IMG/VR virus record: IMGVR_UViG_3300030019_000001
Direction: 5' to 3' (one strand)
Source of the DNA: a virus
Taxonomy: Duplodnaviria > Heunggongvirae > Uroviricota > Caudoviricetes
Length of the DNA: 42,841 bases
The translations under genes were made by a program, and so were the position numbers. The notes below the pieces were generated by a model. The model was not told the origin of the DNA, did no database searches, and saw nothing but the letters and a program-made list of their open reading frames with translations. Of the stretch, positions 1,394 through 39,352 are shown piece after piece (position 1 is the first letter of the stretch; the number at the start of each line of letters is the position of its first letter).

Positions 1394-1729
1394 ATGAAAA
1401 AAGTTTATAAATTTGAAGAATATTATAATTACACAAATGATAAAGCTCCAACTTATAACATAGGAGATTATATTCTTGTTTCTAAACAATTAACGAAAAA
1501 AACATACCTAAAAGGCAAATTTATAATTGAAGAAATCGAGTATATAGACTATCTTGATGAATATCAATATGTTGCTTGGGATGGAGTAAAATCGCCAACA
1601 AATATTGGTCAAATTGCAATAATAAGTGGAAAAAGATGTGTATTAGATAAAGACATTAAAAGAAAACTCACACCAGCAGAAATTGAAGAATTTGAGGTTA
1701 GAAAAAATACAAAAAAATACAATATCTAA
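1394..1729 (+). CDS. Small protein, terminal-cassette family A (MKKVYKFEEYY... IGDYILV ... KNTKKYNI-stop)
   Basis: N-terminal MK..K.FE motif, K(V/I)GDY(V/I) motif, C-terminal KKYNI. Paralogous to 28082-28429 and 28426-28767. Confidence 0.6.
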   Translation: MKKVYKFEEYYNYTNDKAPTYNIGDYILVSKQLTKKTYLKGKFIIEEIEYIDYLDEYQYVAWDGVKSPTNIGQIAIISGKRCVLDKDIKRKLTPAEIEEFEVRKNTKKYNI

Positions 1730-1746: not shown

Positions 1747-2223
1747 TTATAAATTAAATTTTAAAGTATCTTTATAAAAATTAAAATGCTCCACATTCAC
1801 ATCAGAAATAATTTTGTTTATATCATTCTGTTTAATAACAGTTGAAAAACTATAATACTCGCCATAATCTTCTTTTGATGACATAAGATGTCTTAAAAAT
1901 AATAGAGCAGTGTTCCATTTATCTTTATGATATGTTTTTACTGATTTACCCCAATGAAAATCTATTTTAATATCAGTATTGTTGGTTATAGTAAAAAGAA
2001 TATAAAAAATAACATCAAATTCTGAAGTAGGATAACTAAATCTATTAATAGTTATCATATATTCATAATCAGGAGGAGAATTAGTCGAATAAAACAAGTT
2101 ACTATCAGCACTCTTCAAAAATTCAACAATTTTATCACCTAACTTAATTACTTTATAGTGAGTATCAAGGTGAGATAAAAATTCTTCAGTGTAGACTACA
2201 TGTTCTTCATATTTTCGAATCAT
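1747..2223 (-). CDS. Hypothetical protein with C-terminal ...KFNL (terminal-cassette group B)
   Basis: 158-aa ORF; C-terminus DTLKFNL-stop; start MIRKYEEH overlaps the stop of the upstream paralog via TGATTTATGA. Confidence 0.5.
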   Translation of the reverse strand: MIRKYEEHVVYTEEFLSHLDTHYKVIKLGDKIVEFLKSADSNLFYSTNSPPDYEYMITINRFSYPTSEFDVIFYILFTITNNTDIKIDFHWGKSVKTYHKDKWNTALLFLRHLMSSKEDYGEYYSFSTVIKQNDINKIISDVNVEHFNFYKDTLKFNL

Positions 2224-28081: not shown

Positions 28082-28429
28082 ATGAAATATTTAAAAAATT
28101 TTGAAAATGAATTAACCACTGAATATAAAGTAGGTGATTATGTATCAATTAACTATGATACAAAATCTAACACATTAACAAAGTTGAAGGATTTTGTGAA
28201 TAATTCGATAGGAAAAATAATGTTTATTGATGATAAAAGTATGATTATTCAATATGTTAATATTCCAGATAAAATAAAACATTTTTTTTCTGATAAAAAT
28301 GTTGGAAAAGATAAAATAAAAAATTCTGTATTTTTTTGGAATAAAAATAATACAATAAAAAGATTAGCAACAGATGATGAGATAATAGAATATGAAGCAA
28401 TTAAAAATACAAACAAATTTAACATATGA
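28082..28429 (+). CDS. Small protein, terminal-cassette family A (MKYLKNFENELTTEYKVGDYVSI ... KNTNKFNI)
   Basis: Cassette termini; close paralog of 28426-28767. Confidence 0.6.
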   Translation: MKYLKNFENELTTEYKVGDYVSINYDTKSNTLTKLKDFVNNSIGKIMFIDDKSMIIQYVNIPDKIKHFFSDKNVGKDKIKNSVFFWNKNNTIKRLATDDEIIEYEAIKNTNKFNI

Positions 28430-28767
28430 AGCACTTAAGATTATTTGAAAGCCAACTAAAGCCTAAATATAAAGTAGGAGATTATGTTCATTTAGATATG
28501 GAGCCAGATTTTACTTATGATGATTGCTTAGGACAAATACTTAAAATAGATAAAAACGGATTCATAAACGAACCTGAAGAAACAGATTCAAATAAAAAAC
28601 ATGATAATTATATTAACACATTAAATCTTTACCCATATAAAGTTAAAATATTGGATGGTAAATTCGATGCTGAAGAAGGCTTAATAGATAGATATATGAA
28701 AAAAGATGAAATAGAATATTTTGAGTATTTATTAAAGAATAAAGATACTAAAAAATTTAACATATGA
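28426..28767 (+). CDS. Small protein, terminal-cassette family A (MKHLRLFESQLKPKYKVGDYVHL ... KDTKKFNI)
   Basis: Cassette termini; ATGA overlaps on both sides. Confidence 0.6.
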   Translation: MKHLRLFESQLKPKYKVGDYVHLDMEPDFTYDDCLGQILKIDKNGFINEPEETDSNKKHDNYINTLNLYPYKVKILDGKFDAEEGLIDRYMKKDEIEYFEYLLKNKDTKKFNI

Positions 28768-29049: not shown

Positions 29050-29523
29050 TCATCTACCATATCTTTCACCAGGATATTTCTTATCTATTTCTTTAAACAT
29101 ATCATAAGAACGTTTAAATAATTCAAATTTATTTTCTATGAAATCGTCTACATCTTCTTTTGTTGAACTAACAATATCAAAATGATTTTTAATAGATTGT
29201 GGAAGATTGTTCATGTAATTCCTTATCTGATCTGTACTATAGTTAGGAAATTTAGGATTATAATCATTTACTGCTCCAATTAAAGCATTAACAGTATATT
29301 GATCATTGTAGTTTTTCAATAAATCACCCATTAGATTTATTTTTCTTTCTTCATTTTTTTCTCTTTCCACAGTATAAGCGTTTGATGTTATTCCTTTTAC
29401 GCTTGGATTTTTTTCAAATTCTTCATCAGAAATCTTTTTTTTGTGATTACCACCAATATCACCACCCTGAGGAAATTCAATTTTTTCTTTTACATATTCG
29501 CCAAAATCTACTAATTTTTTCAT
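29050..29523 (-). CDS. Hypothetical protein (157 aa; N-terminus MKKLVDFGEYVKE)
   Basis: ORF with an ATG. Confidence 0.45.
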   Translation of the reverse strand: MKKLVDFGEYVKEKIEFPQGGDIGGNHKKKISDEEFEKNPSVKGITSNAYTVEREKNEERKINLMGDLLKNYNDQYTVNALIGAVNDYNPKFPNYSTDQIRNYMNNLPQSIKNHFDIVSSTKEDVDDFIENKFELFKRSYDMFKEIDKKYPGERYGR

Positions 29524-29542
29524 TATTATTTATGTTTTTTTT

Positions 29543-29887
29543 TTATATATTAAATTTATTTGTAGTGAATAAAAAATTCAACTCATCAAAAGTTTTTATC
29601 ATCCAATTATTTCTATTAGCCCATTGGTGATCATTGTATTTGTGTATTACAATATCTAATCTATCGTTGGCTAATTCAATTGTAGTAAAACTTTCAATGT
29701 TGGTATTTTTCTTTTTAAGGATATCTATATTACTTGAATCAATTTTGTCAGTAAGAACAAATTCTTCAATTCCAAGAATTATTTTATATAATATAAAATA
29801 ATCTCCTTCATCTGGTTTGAATAAAACTAAGAAATATTTTTCTTTTTCTTTTTTTCTTTTAAATATATTAAATTTTTCAATTATCAT
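29543..29887 (-). CDS. Terminal-cassette group B protein (about 115 aa from ATG MIIEKFNIFKRKKEK...; ends FTTNKFNI). The track ORF extends to a TTG at 29932, through a duplicated copy of the start region.
   Basis: C-terminal KFNI; the N-terminus lies inside a 52-bp tandem duplication. Confidence 0.5.
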   Translation of the reverse strand: MIIEKFNIFKRKKEKEKYFLVLFKPDEGDYFILYKIILGIEEFVLTDKIDSSNIDILKKKNTNIESFTTIELANDRLDIVIHKYNDHQWANRNNWMIKTFDELNFLFTTNKFNI

Positions 29888-29950
29888 AATTATATATTTT
29901 CTTTTTTCTTTTAAATATATTAAATTTTTCAATTATCATAATTATATATT
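29856..29950. repeat. Two direct copies of a 52-bp unit (ttttcttttaaatatattaaatttttcaattatcataattatatatt) duplicating the 5' end and start codon of gene 29543-29887
   Basis: Copy 1 is at about 29856-29898 and copy 2 at about 29908-29950. Each contains the reverse-complement ATGATAATTGAAAAATTTAATATATTTAAAAG. Confidence 0.8.
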
Positions 29951-30373
29951 AAATTTTCTTGTTGATATTATCCATGATGGAGTATAATTTACAGCATTTA
30001 AAAATAAATAGTATGAAAAAATGAAATATGAACTTTTCCAAACCAGTGATGTTTTATTTGTATATTCTTCTATTTCATAATATAATTTTGGTGTTTCTTC
30101 TATTTTCGTTATCACAGAATCTAATGTATATTTTTTTACTTCTCTTTGTATTTTTTTATTTGTTTTTTTATTATCTGTTTTCCAAATATATGGATATTTA
30201 TACATAAATATTAATAGTGCGAATTCATCATAACAAGAATATGGTATACCTCTATATGTGAAACTATCAGTTATATTTTCTTCATATTTCTTTTTATATA
30301 TTTCTTCATAATTATTTAGAAATTTTTCAGTATCAGAACTAATTTTTATAGAGGAATTTATTTTTGAGTTCAT
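29942..30373 (-). CDS. Hypothetical protein (143 aa) ending ISTRKFNI (terminal cassette)
   Basis: ORF with an ATG; C-terminal KFNI immediately followed by the duplicated start region of the next gene. Confidence 0.5.
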   Translation of the reverse strand: MNSKINSSIKISSDTEKFLNNYEEIYKKKYEENITDSFTYRGIPYSCYDEFALLIFMYKYPYIWKTDNKKTNKKIQREVKKYTLDSVITKIEETPKLYYEIEEYTNKTSLVWKSSYFIFSYYLFLNAVNYTPSWIISTRKFNI

Positions 30374-30455
30374 ATATTATTTTTATTTATAATTATATTT
30401 CGCAAAGATACAAAAAAAATATAACCTTTACTAATAATTATCATCTTTTATATTA

Positions 30456-30893
30456 TTATAAGTTGAATTTATTTGAGATTCTTGTTAAATTCATTTCATT
30501 GATTACTTTTTTCTGTTTTTCTGTAATATTACCATAAATAGTAAATGATGATTTATTGTCAACATGGTAAATATAATTATCATTTGTAGTTAATATTAAT
30601 GATAATAGAACAAATATTCTTTTCTTGTGTTGTAAAGTGCCTTGATATCCAGTCGTACACTCTGTTATGGTGTTGATTCTACCTTTAACTATTTGAGGTA
30701 CATCTATAAAAATATTTTTTTCTTTATCATAACAATTCTTACAATTAAATTCAACTAATGTATCAACTATCAACAAATTACTAAGAAATTTTTTAATTTT
30801 CGTGTAACTACCAGAATAGTAATTTAACAAATCATTTAGTATGAATGTTGTTTCGGTTTCTGTATTTTCAAATATTTTGAAATTTATAATCAT
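30456..30893 (-). CDS. Terminal-cassette group B protein (MIINFKIFENTE ... EFNCKNCYDKEKN ... TIYGNITEKQKKVINEMNLTRISNKFNL)
   Basis: Clear paralog of 31308-31727 (same N-terminus, CxxC, TIYGNI and C-terminus). Confidence 0.6.
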   Translation of the reverse strand: MIINFKIFENTETETTFILNDLLNYYSGSYTKIKKFLSNLLIVDTLVEFNCKNCYDKEKNIFIDVPQIVKGRINTITECTTGYQGTLQHKKRIFVLLSLILTTNDNYIYHVDNKSSFTIYGNITEKQKKVINEMNLTRISNKFNL

Positions 30894-30894
30894 A

Positions 30895-31311
30895 TTAATT
30901 AATTTTTTTCCTTAAATAATTAAAAACAATTTCAAAAAATATCAGTTTAATTGAAAATGCCAACATAACAAACCAAATAGATGTATTCAATGTGATTATA
31001 ACAGATGCAAGAATCATAGTTATTTCAGATATAAACCAAAATAAATGCCATGCATCAGTAAACACAACAAAAATAGTAGTACTTCCTATGAATTTTTCTC
31101 CATTTAATGGATTGGCATTTTTATATTTATTGAGAGACCCCAATCCTTGTTCCCAAAATTTTGGATTTAATTTATATTTTAAATATAATCTTGACTTGTA
31201 AAATAAATTAGGAGAAGATGATATATCAGTTATAGATTTAGATATACCAGATATTAATAATAAAAAAAGTATTATTAAAATGTTTAAAATTGCTGAAGTA
31301 GTTAGTATCAT
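30895..31311 (-). CDS. Predicted multi-pass membrane protein (138 aa) embedded between two group B paralogs
   Basis: Hydrophobic segments MILTTSAILNILIILFLLLISGI and ITMILASVIITLNTSIWFVMLAFSIKLIFF; its start overlaps the KFNI-TGA of the upstream gene. Confidence 0.5.
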   Translation of the reverse strand: MILTTSAILNILIILFLLLISGISKSITDISSSPNLFYKSRLYLKYKLNPKFWEQGLGSLNKYKNANPLNGEKFIGSTTIFVVFTDAWHLFWFISEITMILASVIITLNTSIWFVMLAFSIKLIFFEIVFNYLRKKIN

Positions 31312-31727
31312 ATGTTAAATTTATTTGCTTGTCTTTTTATATTAATATCATTTATTATTTTTTTTATATCACCAGGAATATTTCCATAAATTGTCATCTG
31401 AGAATTTGTGTCTACTATATGACTAAATTTTATTCTTTTCAATCTCAATGTTAAGTATATATGTTTAAGATCATAATTAAATCCATAACTTCTACCGTTT
31501 ATAATTCCTTTATGATGTTTATTTGAATGTATAAAATTTGTAACACCATTTATATCATCTGTACATTTATTACAATTAAATTCAACAATGTTATTGTTGA
31601 AATTAAATAATTTGAAAATGAAATTTCGTATTGAATCTTCATGACTATCAAAGTAATCTACAATATCATCCAATACCAATGTGACTTTATCATCTGAGTT
31701 CTCGAATAATTTGAATTCTGTTATCAT
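31308..31727 (-). CDS. Terminal-cassette group B protein (MITEFKLFENSDD ... EFNCNKCTDDING ... TIYGNIPGDIKKIINDINIKRQANKFNI)
   Basis: Paralog of 30456-30893. Confidence 0.6.
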   Translation of the reverse strand: MITEFKLFENSDDKVTLVLDDIVDYFDSHEDSIRNFIFKLFNFNNNIVEFNCNKCTDDINGVTNFIHSNKHHKGIINGRSYGFNYDLKHIYLTLRLKRIKFSHIVDTNSQMTIYGNIPGDIKKIINDINIKRQANKFNI

Positions 31728-31741
31728 GCTGATATATATAA

Positions 31742-32920
31742 TTATTTGAATTTGTTTTTTAATACTTGATATTGAGATTTAACAGAATAATAAGACCTAT
31801 TTAATTTTTTAGCACAACATTTTATTCCTATATGATAATTTTCAATTAAAAAAATAATATCATCTTCTGGCCATGAATTTTTTCTTTTTTTTGCTATCAT
31901 ATGAGAGCATATATCTTTATACCATTCATTTTTAATTGCAGATGCTGCTGCACTACTATTGTTTTTTAGAAAATCATCTTTATAAATATATTTTGATGCC
32001 TCGTATTTACATTTTTCATATGTCCAAAATTTAGCAGATCCTCCTAATGTACTTTTTTTGTTAGTATTTAATAATTTCCAATTATTATTTTTGTATTCAT
32101 TCATATAATATTCTTCCAATTTCTGTGCTTCTGATTTATTAATATAGTCAGTTAATTGTATCAATTTATATTTATTGCTTGCTTTTTGTAAATGTTTGTA
32201 AATTGGACCTTTTTTAATATGCTCCTGCTCTCTAATTTTTATATTATATGTCAATCCAATATATGCACAATTATCATCAAATTCAAAAGCATAAATACAT
32301 CTAAATTCTTTACTACCAATTTTTATCATATGTGAACAGATATCATTAGATATATTATTTACATTTGAAAAATTATAAGCACCTCTATATTTTTTTTGAA
32401 AATCATTTCTACTATTACACTTTAATGCTTCTTCTTTGCATTTATCATAATTCCAATAATTATTAACATAAGTCATATGATTACAAATTTTTTCTATCCA
32501 TTTTTTTGAAATAGATATTCTATATGCACTAGCATCATTTTTTCTAAAATCAGTTCTGGTTAAATATTTTAATGCTACTTCTTGACATTTTTCTATTGTC
32601 CAGTAATTATTAGGTTTATGACTTAAATTCATATGAGAACAAATACTATTTAGCCAATTATTTTTTAATGACTTATTATATGCAGTTGCTTCATTTTTTT
32701 GAAAATCTGATATAGAATTATAATTTAATGCTGCTTCTTGACATTTATTGTGTGTCCAATGTCCTGGAGTATTAATTTTATATTTCATATGTGAACAAAC
32801 AATATTTAAATATTTATTTTTTACACAAGCATTATATGCTAAATTATCTAATTTTTTAAAATCACTTCTATATTCATATTTTAATGCTGCTTTTTGACAT
32901 ATTTCTAATGTCCATTTCAT
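31742..32920 (-). CDS. GIY-YIG family endonuclease (homing-endonuclease-like) with four N-terminal and one C-terminal ~43-aa W..E.C..(A/E)AL.Y..R.DF.K...AY.....W...IC.HM repeats and a C-terminal helix-turn-helix-like tail
   Basis: Core FRCIYAFEFDDNCAYIGLTYNIKIREQEHIKKG. Repeats WTLEICQKAALKYEYRSDF..., WTHNKCQEAALNYNSISDF..., WTIEKCQEVALKYLTRTDF..., WNYDKCKEEALKCNSRNDF..., WTYEKCKYEASKYIYKDDF.... Tail NSWPEDDIIFLIENYHIGIKCCAKKLNRSYYSVKSQY. Confidence 0.8.
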   Translation of the reverse strand: MKWTLEICQKAALKYEYRSDFKKLDNLAYNACVKNKYLNIVCSHMKYKINTPGHWTHNKCQEAALNYNSISDFQKNEATAYNKSLKNNWLNSICSHMNLSHKPNNYWTIEKCQEVALKYLTRTDFRKNDASAYRISISKKWIEKICNHMTYVNNYWNYDKCKEEALKCNSRNDFQKKYRGAYNFSNVNNISNDICSHMIKIGSKEFRCIYAFEFDDNCAYIGLTYNIKIREQEHIKKGPIYKHLQKASNKYKLIQLTDYINKSEAQKLEEYYMNEYKNNNWKLLNTNKKSTLGGSAKFWTYEKCKYEASKYIYKDDFLKNNSSAAASAIKNEWYKDICSHMIAKKRKNSWPEDDIIFLIENYHIGIKCCAKKLNRSYYSVKSQYQVLKNKFK

Positions 32921-37711: not shown

Positions 37712-39352
37712 TTATAAATGGATTAGTTGTTGTACCCCTGTTATAGTAGGTATACTATTTACATTTAATGCAATTTCAATAATTCCATCAATTTCTAATA
37801 ATGATGTATTTAAATGAGTTGAATCTCCACCTATATTACTTAATTTGATTTCATCTATAAAATGTCCCCATCTTGGACGATCTGTTGTTCCTGTTACAGA
37901 AATTGTTTGTGGTATAGTCAATTCAGAATTGAATGTTTGTCCTGATTGGTTATAACCTTTACTGTAATTTACATAATAGTTTAATGCAAATGTTCCTGAA
38001 ATTGCTGTACCATTATGACTCCAATGTGTGTGTAAATATATATCAGAGTTTGGTAAATAATCATGTGGCATATGATATGTAATATTATCTATCTTATCAT
38101 TAACTTGAAATGTATAATTAAGTATATTAGTTCCTCTTAACGGTGATAATGAAGGAGCAGTAGATCCACCAACCCTTGGTATTATCTGACCGATTAAATC
38201 TTTATATCCAAATGTCGGTGTTGTATTGTCTATCATTATACCTGTTCCTGACAACTTTGGTAATATTAAATTACCATTTAAATTTAATAATGAATTATGA
38301 TATGTTAATCCACTTTCAACATTTACATTTGGAGATGATACATTTAATGTAAGTAGTCCATAATTCGTTGTACCATTTAATGATACTGTTCCTGAACTTC
38401 CTGATGTTCCATTGGTTCCTGAACTTCCTGATGTTCCATTGGTTCCTGAACTTCCTGACGTTCCATTCGTTCCTGATGTTCCATTTGTGCCTGAACTTCC
38501 TGATGTTCCATTTGTTCCTGACGTTCCATTTGTTCCTGACGTTCCATTCGTTCCTGATGTTCCATTTGTGCCTGAACTTCCTGATGTTCCATTTGTTCCT
38601 GATGTTCCATTTGTTCCTGACGTTCCATTTGTTCCTGACGTTCCATTCGTTCCTGATGTTCCATCTGTTCCTGAACTTCCTGATGTTCCATTCGTTCCTG
38701 ATGTTCCATCTATTCCTGATGTTCCATCTATTCCTGATGTTCCATCTATTCCTGATGTTCCATCTATTCCTGATGTTCCATCTGTTCCTGAACTTCCCGA
38801 TGTTCCATCTGTTCCTGAAATTCCTGATGTTCCATCTATTCCTGATGTTCCATCTATTCCTGAAGGACCAGGAGCACCATTTAATGATACATTCCAAAAA
38901 TTATATGTTCCGCTACCAATAGATGAAGTAATATTTGAAAATATTTCACCTGTTATTTTATTATATGATAATATATAATTTATCATTAAATTTGATGAGT
39001 CATGTGTTATTATAATATCTTGTCCTGTAGATAATGATAAATTAGGCTCAACAAAAAATGATATTGTACCTCCTGTTGATATTTCTAATGTATTATTCGA
39101 AAATGTAGTATATTTATCTCCACTTAATCCATTTGTTCCTGAACTTCCATTTGTTCCTGAACTTCCATTTGTACCTGATGTTCCATCTGTTCCTGATGTT
39201 CCATCTGTTCCTGAACTTCCATTTGTTCCTGAACTTCCATTTGTTCCTGATGTGTGAGAAATGCCAGATAGAGATTCTAAATATGAAAAATTACCGTCCA
39301 TTTCGGTTATAGTTAATCTTTCTCCTTTTTGTTGTCTTAAAATTAAACTCAT
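37712..39352 (-). CDS. Collagen-like triple-helix repeat protein (two G-X-Y blocks, about 45 and about 150 residues, of GT(S/N/D)G(S/T)SGT type) with a C-terminal globular domain of about 230 aa
   Basis: GTNGSSGTDGTSGTDGTSGTNGSSGTNG... and GPSGIDGTSGIDGTSGISGTDGTSGSSGTDG... runs. Repeats at the DNA level generate four spurious overlapping ORFs. Confidence 0.8.
   Translation of the reverse strand: MSLILRQQKGERLTITEMDGNFSYLESLSGISHTSGTNGSSGTNGSSGTDGTSGTDGTSGTNGSSGTNGSSGTNGLSGDKYTTFSNNTLEISTGGTISFFVEPNLSLSTGQDIIITHDSSNLMINYILSYNKITGEIFSNITSSIGSGTYNFWNVSLNGAPGPSGIDGTSGIDGTSGISGTDGTSGSSGTDGTSGIDGTSGIDGTSGIDGTSGIDGTSGTNGTSGSSGTDGTSGTNGTSGTNGTSGTNGTSGTNGTSGSSGTNGTSGTNGTSGTNGTSGTNGTSGSSGTNGTSGTNGTSGSSGTNGTSGSSGTNGTSGSSGTVSLNGTTNYGLLTLNVSSPNVNVESGLTYHNSLLNLNGNLILPKLSGTGIMIDNTTPTFGYKDLIGQIIPRVGGSTAPSLSPLRGTNILNYTFQVNDKIDNITYHMPHDYLPNSDIYLHTHWSHNGTAISGTFALNYYVNYSKGYNQSGQTFNSELTIPQTISVTGTTDRPRWGHFIDEIKLSNIGGDSTHLNTSLLEIDGIIEIALNVNSIPTITGVQQLIHL
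38400..38880. repeat. Coding 9/18-bp (G-X-Y) tandem repeats of the collagen-like gene (the major block; a minor block is at about 39121-39255)
   Basis: ggaacatca/ggaacgtca/ggaacatcagg units repeated. Confidence 0.8.

Follow-up and report, generated by a model that had tools for sequence, protein, structure and literature searches.

Unstable tandem duplications are classical features of phages T4 and lambda, and translational coupling and upstream-ORF (uORF) relays are familiar from bacterial and phage operons. Microhomology-mediated or slippage-type tandem duplications (MTDs) occur at a subclonal level and can be reversed rapidly (Dan et al., bioRxiv 10.1101/2020.03.03.972455). T4-type phages contain promoter/stem-loop (PeSL) cassettes that mediate modular gene shuffling (PMC2839356, PMC4122927), and T4 internal proteins carry a capsid targeting sequence (CTS; reviewed in PMC9026906).

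The locus described here is a tandemly duplicated gene start in a 42,841-nucleotide stretch of viral DNA (IMG/VR record IMGVR_UViG_3300030019_000001; hereafter, the window). Like an MTD, it is a short, spacer-free, head-to-tail duplication that coexists with a one-copy form on an identical background, and its precise loss in one step restores the original sequence. Unlike an MTD, it has only 2 nt of microhomology at the inferred endpoints, its product is inexact, with one extra 1-nt change, and it occurs in a wild phage population instead of a culture. Its ancestral stop-2 nt-ATG junction is typical of coupled operon pairs and, as in uORF relays, a short ORF begins 2 nt past the upstream stop and ends overlapping the real start. 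In contrast to such relays, however, this uORF is a duplication accident that is unconserved in relatives; moreover, the host type apparently does without Shine-Dalgarno sequences, so the E. coli rules may not transfer.

The neighbourhood also recalls PeSL cassettes, in the short conserved borders of small accessory genes in hyperplastic regions and in gene-sized indels between close relatives that fall exactly at such borders. However, the conserved border is here coding (C-terminal K[FY]N[IL] and N-terminal tags) and was not the crossover site of the duplication, and the early sigma-70 promoter with a stem-loop or terminator that marks a PeSL-type gene border is absent. The duplication is ordinary in kind: a slippage-type event in a fast-evolving accessory block.

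Source genome

The window has a G+C content of 22-29%. Its 1417-aa protein (19911-24164) can be aligned across 96% of its length to LR756501, a 735-kb huge phage genome (PMC7162821); weaker matches come from jumbo phages of Prevotella, Tenacibaculum and Chryseobacterium. In addition, an identical stretch is found on a contig of 404,781 bp (L011). The relatives of the 1417-aa protein and the length of L011 identify the source as a huge phage with a genome of at least 405 kb, whose host is probably a member of the Bacteroidota. Across all window gene starts, a Shine-Dalgarno core precedes 2 of 54 genes, where chance alone would give 3.6; at positions -20 to -10, A makes up 60-70% of the leaders. 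Shine-Dalgarno-independent starts, A-rich leaders and the nearest phage relatives are all consistent with a Bacteroidota-type host.

Architecture of the duplicated gene start

Tandem Repeats Finder identifies a repeat at 29844-29950 with a period of 52, 2.0 copies, 98% matches and a score of 207. The two copies (Table 1) are direct, head-to-tail and spacer-free; an exact run of 49 nt at offset 52 is followed by 11 nt at offset 53. Apart from two coding repeat arrays, this 49-nt run is the longest fixed-offset run in the window, whereas 100 sequences simulated with a first-order Markov model gave longest runs of 13 on average and 17 at most. These results confirm the original prediction of a 52-bp tandem duplication of a gene start, which was also correct in placing it directly after the KFNI-stop of the upstream gene, where KFNI-TAA is followed by TT and ATG1. 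Of the limits then given, 29856-29950, the end stands, but the start lies slightly inside the repeat, which begins at 29844-29847. Similarly, the start is indeed repeated, but over more than the "about 11 codons" first counted: the exact coding match between copies comprises 12 full codons plus 2 nt, the 13th codon, for Lys, being AAG in one copy and AAA in the other.

Table 1. Features of the duplicated gene start and of related motifs in the window (ATG positions are given as read on the minus strand)
Feature	Position	Strand	Remarks
Block of small genes	29050-32920	-	
114-aa gene, start duplicated	29543-29887	-	MIIEKFNIFKRKKEKEKYF...TTNKFNI; true start ATG2 at 29887
A/G-rich run AAAAGAAAAAAAGAAAAAGAAAAA	29836-29860	-	Codons 10-17 of the 114-aa gene; contains the right breakpoint and the 1-nt homopolymer difference
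Downstream copy of the unit	29847-29898	-	Core 29850-29898; similarity extends to 29844 with a 1-nt indel
Decoy ORF	29877-29939	-	ATG1 at 29939, 20 codons (MIIEKFNIFKRKKKIYNYDN), stop TGA 29877-29879
ATG2	29887-29885	-	
Extra (upstream) copy of the 52-nt unit	29899-29950	-	Exact core 29902-29950
ATG1	29939-29937	-	
Upstream 143-aa gene	29942-30373	-	From the ORF list; ends ...STRKFNI = AAA TTT AAT ATA TAA, stop 29942-29944
AAATTTAATATAT, KFNI-stop of the 143-aa gene	29944-29956	-	
AAATTTAATATAT, the two gene-start copies	29915-29927, 29863-29875	-	
AAATTTAATATAT, end of the 114-aa gene itself	29545-29557	-	
AAATTTAATATAT, fifth site	28071-28083		
K[FY]N[IL]-stop gene ends	1729, 1747, 2227, 6221, 6586, 7215, 7893, 28429, 28767, 29543, 29942, 30456, 31308		

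The duplicated unit takes in the last two codons and the stop of the 143-aa gene, the 2-nt spacer TT that separates this stop from ATG1 and recurs inside each unit, and the beginning of the 114-aa gene, whose first 12-13 codons encode MIIEKFNIFKRKK in both copies. The extra copy reads AAT ATA TAA TT ATG ATA ATT GAA AAA TTT AAT ATA TTT AAA AGA AAA AAG AA; read on from ATG1, the sequence reaches AAG AAA A, after which AATATATAATT and ATG ATA ATT recur (minus-strand reading). The copies differ in one homopolymer, which is A6 in the extra copy and A7 in the downstream copy. The downstream copy bears the functional start of the 114-aa gene, and its right-hand sequence, A7 G A5 G A5, is that of the one-copy allele. 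The decoy ORF that begins at ATG1 is out of frame with the 114-aa gene (52 mod 3 = 1); its last base falls 11 nt beyond the A of ATG2.

One-copy and two-copy alleles in the population

Alleles were counted in contigs obtained by exact look-ups of the two flanking proteins, the junction being taken from each contig; the population set comprised 16 contigs from 15 samples (L002 and L012 derive from one sample). A two-copy junction identical to that of the window is present in 10 contigs from nine samples (L002/L012, L003, L004, L005, L006, L010, L013, L014 and L015), with both the JGI and the ENA-MEGAHIT pipelines represented. Four contigs (L001, L009, L011 and L016) carry a one-copy allele (..AAT ATA TAA TT ATG.. 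and then A7 G A5 G A5), which makes the two-copy allele the majority form (9/13 samples). The flanks of the one-copy contigs are 99.98-100% identical to the window, with no mismatch over about 20 kb in L011 and three over 18.6 kb in L001. Only alleles of one and two units were seen in the 15 population contigs and the window, with the 114-aa ORF intact in both; the many length alleles of a contingency locus or phase-variable repeat were not found. Exact-pattern scans for the junction and the unique flank gave no match in IMG/VR or the JGI metagenome collection.

The comparison of related genomes, proposed as a check when the repeat was first noticed, proved decisive, both alleles being found. 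The two-copy allele is real, because its junction k-mers cannot come from one-copy reads. Two Logan contigs built with k=31 (L007 and L008) both stop at 29921, which is exactly 31 nt from the last unique base, 29951; a break at this position is expected of a repeat branch, where the core has two different left contexts in the reads. The one-copy contigs are very probably real as well, since they could be built only from k-mers in which one core connects the left and right flanks. Because the flanks are essentially identical between alleles, the difference is a polymorphism within a near-clonal population.

Two assembly-based explanations would undo part of this picture. The first, raised as an alternative from the outset, is that an assembler expanded a single-copy sequence and that the phage has no second copy; the region is of low complexity (about 90% A+T), and two Logan contigs break within the repeat. 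However, the novel junction AAAAAAGAAAATATATAATTATG is identical in 10 contigs, nine samples and two assembly pipelines instead of being limited to one of them, a de Bruijn assembler is unable to make junction k-mers that are absent from the reads, the 107-nt array is shorter than both the read length and k=141, and the Logan break is where a true repeat predicts it. An artefact is thus refuted for the two-copy form, its probability being negligible. Conversely, the population might be fixed for two copies and the one-copy contigs (assemblies ERZ27248700, ERZ27248704, ERZ27249138 and ERZ27249838) might be MEGAHIT collapses, in which case the polymorphism would be unreal. All four are indeed MEGAHIT contigs (k141_), none of six JGI contigs is one-copy (Fisher test on allele counts by pipeline, p ~0.05), and the one-copy path is a valid walk in a low-k graph of the two-copy sequence. 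Yet at k >= 51 a collapse needs k-mers running from the left flank through the 49-nt core to the right flank, which a pure two-copy population lacks; L002, L006 and L014, from the same MEGAHIT series, are two-copy; and the one-copy set includes otherwise perfect contigs of 404 kb and 22 kb. Such a collapse is therefore very unlikely, and the two alleles are treated below as segregating.

Outgroups and direction of change

Distant relatives of the 114-aa gene were collected by a protein search and a locus search. In L021/L022 (71% amino acid identity) and L023 (46%), the junction is KFN[IL]-TAA-AA-ATG in one copy. In the L020 group (74-75%), two paralogues of the 114-aa gene, A and B, stand in tandem with TAA-TT-ATG between them; the junction of the 143-aa gene with A has a 15-nt spacer and a GTG start. 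Orthologues of the 143-aa protein, with 142-143 aa and ending in KFNI or KFNL, occur in L020 and L023, and its C-terminus only was recovered from L021/L022. The duplication is absent from all three related lineages (L020, L021/L022 and L023). These comparisons show that in the ancestral arrangement KFN[IL]-stop is followed by 2 nt and the ATG of the 114-aa gene. Because all outgroups are one-copy, the duplication is derived, limited to the window lineage and still segregating there.

Origin of the duplication

All tandem duplications of 40-69 nt of the one-copy allele were enumerated against the two-copy allele. None reproduces it: the two-copy allele lies at an edit distance of 1 from an exact segment duplication. 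The closest approach is to duplicate 53 nt and then remove a single A from the A7 of the upstream copy. This duplication has three equivalent registers, corresponding to a microhomology of 2 nt (AA), which is no better than chance in a sequence of 78% A+T and falls short of the approximately 4 nt or more at both ends that would characterize a simple tandem duplication. The right breakpoint lies in the A/G-rich run AAAAGAAAAAAAGAAAAAG and the left at the AAT of KFNI. Conversely, deleting 52 nt gives back the exact one-copy allele in each of 50 registers, as precise loss of the unit of a simple tandem duplication should. A 60-nt duplication between a 5-nt AATAT pair was rejected, since it predicts a 60-nt period and needs at least two further deletions.

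The locus is best explained as a recent, segregating tandem duplication of slippage type in a near-clonal natural population of a huge phage (probability approximately 0.75). Judging from the product alone, slippage or template switching in replication would have used the AA microhomology to copy a 53-nt segment reaching from the last two codons of the 143-aa gene to the A/G-rich run at codons 13-15 of the 114-aa gene. A later loss of one A from the A7 of the upstream copy would have produced the present 52-nt period; this second event must be assumed because the allele is not an exact duplication. Reversion would take one step, since a single 52-nt deletion regenerates the one-copy allele, and the present one-copy genomes may be either ancestral or revertants that lost the 49-nt exact repeat.

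Expected effect on translation

Between 28900 and 31000, promoter-like sites are fewer than in shuffled sequences and no terminators were found. A role of the unit as a duplicated promoter was rejected, because the promoter and terminator scan did not rise above shuffles. The RNA of the one-copy junction has a predicted folding energy of -2.6 kcal/mol (z = +1.6) and is less stable than 196 of 200 shuffles. In the two-copy RNA, both start regions are predicted to pair (-7.6 to -10.1 kcal/mol), no better than in shuffles (z ~-1.2 to 0); the AAUUAUGAUAAUU of each copy is palindromic and self-complementary, with weak pairing predicted between the copies. The context of ATG1 is the same as that of ATG2 from -11 to +38, and the two should be equivalent as start sites because Shine-Dalgarno sequences are unused and leaders are A-rich.

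The 2-nt stop-start distance and the predicted lack of structure in the one-copy RNA fit translational coupling of the 143-aa and 114-aa genes. In the two-copy allele, the real gene would remain intact but be preceded by a perfect decoy start. Translation begun at ATG1 would yield a peptide of 20 residues and terminate 11 nt into the 114-aa gene, so that the 2-nt coupling would be replaced by a short-ORF relay. The expected result, inferred from these features, is a modest, at most moderate, change in the expression of a dispensable accessory gene, near neutral in effect. The decoy ORF is missing from all one-copy alleles and from the three related lineages, and thus shows none of the conservation expected of a regulatory uORF or leader peptide.

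The KFNI motif

The 13-mer AAATTTAATATAT occurs five times in the window (0.25 expected), including the upstream stop and the inside of the gene start, so the resemblance at the DNA level between the gene start and the KFNI cassette, on which the original prediction had remarked, is real. At the protein level, K[FY]N[IL] ends 13 of the 56 window genes (0.012 expected), and its one internal occurrence is at the N-terminus of the 114-aa protein. The codons of KFNI vary synonymously (TTT/TTC/TAC, AAT/AAC and ATA/ATT/ATC/TTA), and convergent genes, which have no downstream gene, also end in a KFNI-type motif. Because of this synonymous variation and these convergent genes, KFNI is mainly a protein-level motif and offers little DNA homology.

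A fast-evolving gene block

Homologues of the 114-aa protein are few: a search of 5.8 billion proteins yielded only four, with 45-99% identity, and paralogue B of L020 is 43% identical. The four homologues and L020 B begin with MI[IV]E[KR]FNIFK and start 2 nt after the upstream stop (the spacer of L020 A being 15 nt); in the alignment, conservation is highest at the two ends, MI.E.FNIFK.K at the N-terminus and TNKFN at the C-terminus. Neither Pfam nor PHROGs has a family for the 114-, 143- or 157-aa proteins, and the AlphaFold model of the 114-aa protein is unusable (pLDDT 46.6, from a five-sequence alignment). A suggestion that the protein P0004 is an A/B chimera formed by unequal crossing-over was not supported by segment identities. 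As to the paralogues, L020 has A and the extra B, L023 the B type only and the window the A type only.

Several contigs carry disrupted genes in this region. In L003, the 114-aa gene is frameshifted by a deletion of 23 nt (29766-29788), which removes one arm of a perfect 12-nt palindrome (29778-29789/29791-29802). In L013, the 143-aa gene is cut short by a nonsense mutation (Y130*, at 29984) and the GIY-YIG gene lacks 4 nt (32175-32178); in L005, the 139-aa gene has a nonsense mutation (E4*, at 31718). Relative to the window, the loss-of-function variants of L003, L005 and L013 cluster in 29543-32184, whereas the background is otherwise clonal. The small genes of the block are 54-75% identical to their orthologues in the L020 lineage, compared with 95-96% for neighbouring genes. 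From these sequence comparisons, the 114-aa gene is evidently dispensable, and the block as a whole appears to be a dispensable or fast-evolving accessory region under relaxed constraint.

Gene-sized differences between the window and L020 lie exactly at gene borders (window 30895-31311, 26290-27183 and 31742-32920). A 138-aa membrane-like gene is inserted after a KFNI-stop/ATG overlap, with ATGAT repeats on its flanks, and the HNH/DUF723 and GIY-YIG endonuclease genes are absent from the L020 lineage.

Alternative origins of the two-copy allele

Three other histories would account for the allele differently. The extra copy might be the remnant of a lost paralogue, left when a tandem duplication of the entire 114-aa gene was followed by an internal deletion that spared only the first 13 and the last two codons of the upstream copy. 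The end sequence would be indistinguishable from that observed, and L020 does have tandem A and B genes with the same 2-nt junction. This route, however, would take two large events in addition to the 1-nt change, and would require the first 49 nt of the paralogue to be identical, whereas A and B of L020 differ at several positions within the first 45 nt; furthermore, no intermediate with two full identical copies occurs in the 16 population contigs (15 samples) or in contigs of the three related lineages. It is exceedingly improbable. The original prediction had instead seen in the repeat the kind of event to be expected if the junction cassette is a hotspot of recombination or duplication; on this reading, unequal recombination at the KFNI-stop/ATG cassette would have generated the repeat. 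It is true that the left breakpoint falls within the final KFNI codons, that the duplicated gene start contains 13/14 nt matching the motif, that the A-to-B junction of L020 is also TAA-TT-ATG, and that paralogue B and the 138-aa gene are present or absent between lineages exactly at such junctions. However, the two KFNI 13/14-mers of the one-copy allele are 29 nt apart, so unequal exchange between them should yield a 29-nt duplication and not a period of 52/53, and the right breakpoint is in the A/G run. None of six other KFNI-type junctions covered by the 15 population contigs is polymorphic, the only differences in 108 kb of pairwise coverage outside the collagen-like array being 11 SNPs and three indels, and none of five homologous junctions in the three related lineages is duplicated. 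In addition, synonymous variation leaves only short DNA runs common to different genes. The hotspot is therefore unsupported and highly unlikely as the source of this duplication; over a longer time scale, the whole-gene gain and loss exactly at such junctions is a weak hint of such activity.

A third possibility is that the extra copy was selected as a regulatory change, acting as a uORF or leader that uncouples or attenuates translation of the 114-aa gene or gives this gene a more A-rich leader. Its rise would then be credited to an advantage of lower or independent expression, for example in escaping a host defence that senses the 114-aa protein. The decoy ORF does overlap the real start, the start regions can pair, initiation is Shine-Dalgarno-independent with A-rich leaders, and independent knock-outs of the 114-aa gene and two neighbours occur on the same background; the two-copy majority could reflect selection or hitch-hiking. 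On the other hand, the uORF has no counterpart in any related lineage, the predicted structure is weak and not above shuffles, and relaxed constraint explains the clustered loss-of-function variants equally well. Selection is accordingly considered unlikely, and a near-neutral, slippage-type duplication is retained as the preferred explanation.

Terminal tags

Many of the K[FY]N[IL] genes also share a beginning, either MK[YH][LI]K.[FY]E or MI[IT].FK.FEN. When 1.84 billion proteins were searched with a profile of the paralogues of about 110 aa, 144 cluster representatives matched. Of the 138 small ones, 124 have K[FY]N[ILV] at the C-terminus, in most cases as KYNL; all 10 profile matches that were looked up are unnamed or "hypothetical" metagenome proteins. 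In L027, a distant phage contig with 24% G+C, 13 of 40 genes carry the tag, including two at positions called as ankyrin-repeat genes and one encoding a 442-aa protein. The K[FY]N[IL] observation covers the window plus L020, L026 and L027. A search with tblastn of a tag-family representative against GenBank phages gave no match, and nothing relevant was found in the literature on KFNI in phage or on KYNL. The two terminal motifs thus have the look of a pair of tags, so far undescribed, that are attached to unrelated domains.

In a confident AlphaFold model of a 115-aa KFNI paralogue (pLDDT 86), residues 1-10 are predicted to be disordered and the tag follows the C-terminal helix. Foldseek comparison of this model gave only weak SH3-like/eL21 matches (TM ~0.4), from which no function can be inferred. 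Like the T4 CTS, the N-terminal tag comprises about 10 residues, is common to otherwise unrelated, fast-evolving small proteins and, in the window family, is predicted to be disordered in this model. By analogy, the CTS may serve as a lead, and a lead only; to our knowledge, the C-terminal K[FY]N[IL] tag has no counterpart in T4.

The duplication might also be read as the footprint of a cassette architecture, in which the tags act at the protein level and, since they adjoin one another at gene junctions, also supply short homologies for gene duplication, insertion and loss. This is quite unlikely. If it were true, a quarter to a third of the genes in this A+T-rich huge phage clade would be small, fast-evolving cassettes with terminal address tags, M-K-[YH]-[LI]-K-x-[FY]-E or M-I-[IT]-x-F-K-x-F-E at the N-terminus and K-[FY]-N-[IL] at the C-terminus, which would serve, for instance, as signals for targeting to the virion or for processing, comparable to the T4 CTS.

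Other observations in the window

Four further features concern gene ends and repeats. A 300-aa gene ends in NRKI-TAA (window 28064-28084), where the DNA reads GAAAAATTTAATATATGA; with one A less in its A5 run, it would end in RKFNI-TGA overlapping the next ATG. The L020 lineage has the same out-of-frame NRKI state, which represents either a DNA motif kept in another frame or an old frameshift. In P0007, a homologue of the gene at 28426-28767, the stop after KFNI has been lost and 27 more residues are read (..KFNIWANYLMIY..), a sign of turnover at such gene ends. A spacer-free inverted repeat at 1708-1751 (22 nt, 95% complementary) lies between the convergent genes 1394-1729 (+) and 1747-2223 (-); its left arm consists of the KKYNI-stop codons, and the repeat, which overlaps the ends of both genes, probably acts as a bidirectional terminator. 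Finally, a collagen-like (G-X-Y) protein (37712-39352, minus strand; repeats at 38388-38863 and 39128-39250) is 546 aa long in the window and 516 and 483 aa long in the otherwise identical contigs L011 and L002, respectively; either the number of repeats varies in what is probably a fibre gene, or the array has collapsed in assembly.

Significance

The duplication alone matters little, being a small and probably near-neutral indel. The assembly is right at this locus, and the 114-aa gene should be annotated from ATG2 (29887), not from ATG1 or an in-frame TTG. The two alleles provide a marker for tracking sub-populations of an otherwise clonal huge phage across samples, and the two-copy form is a natural test case of a decoy start placed before a tightly coupled gene pair in a Shine-Dalgarno-free system. 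The widespread C-terminal K[FY]N[IL] tag is more interesting than the duplication itself. The wider value of the locus is that it draws attention to an accessory block with rapid turnover and to a superfamily of terminally tagged proteins, as yet undescribed, in huge phages.
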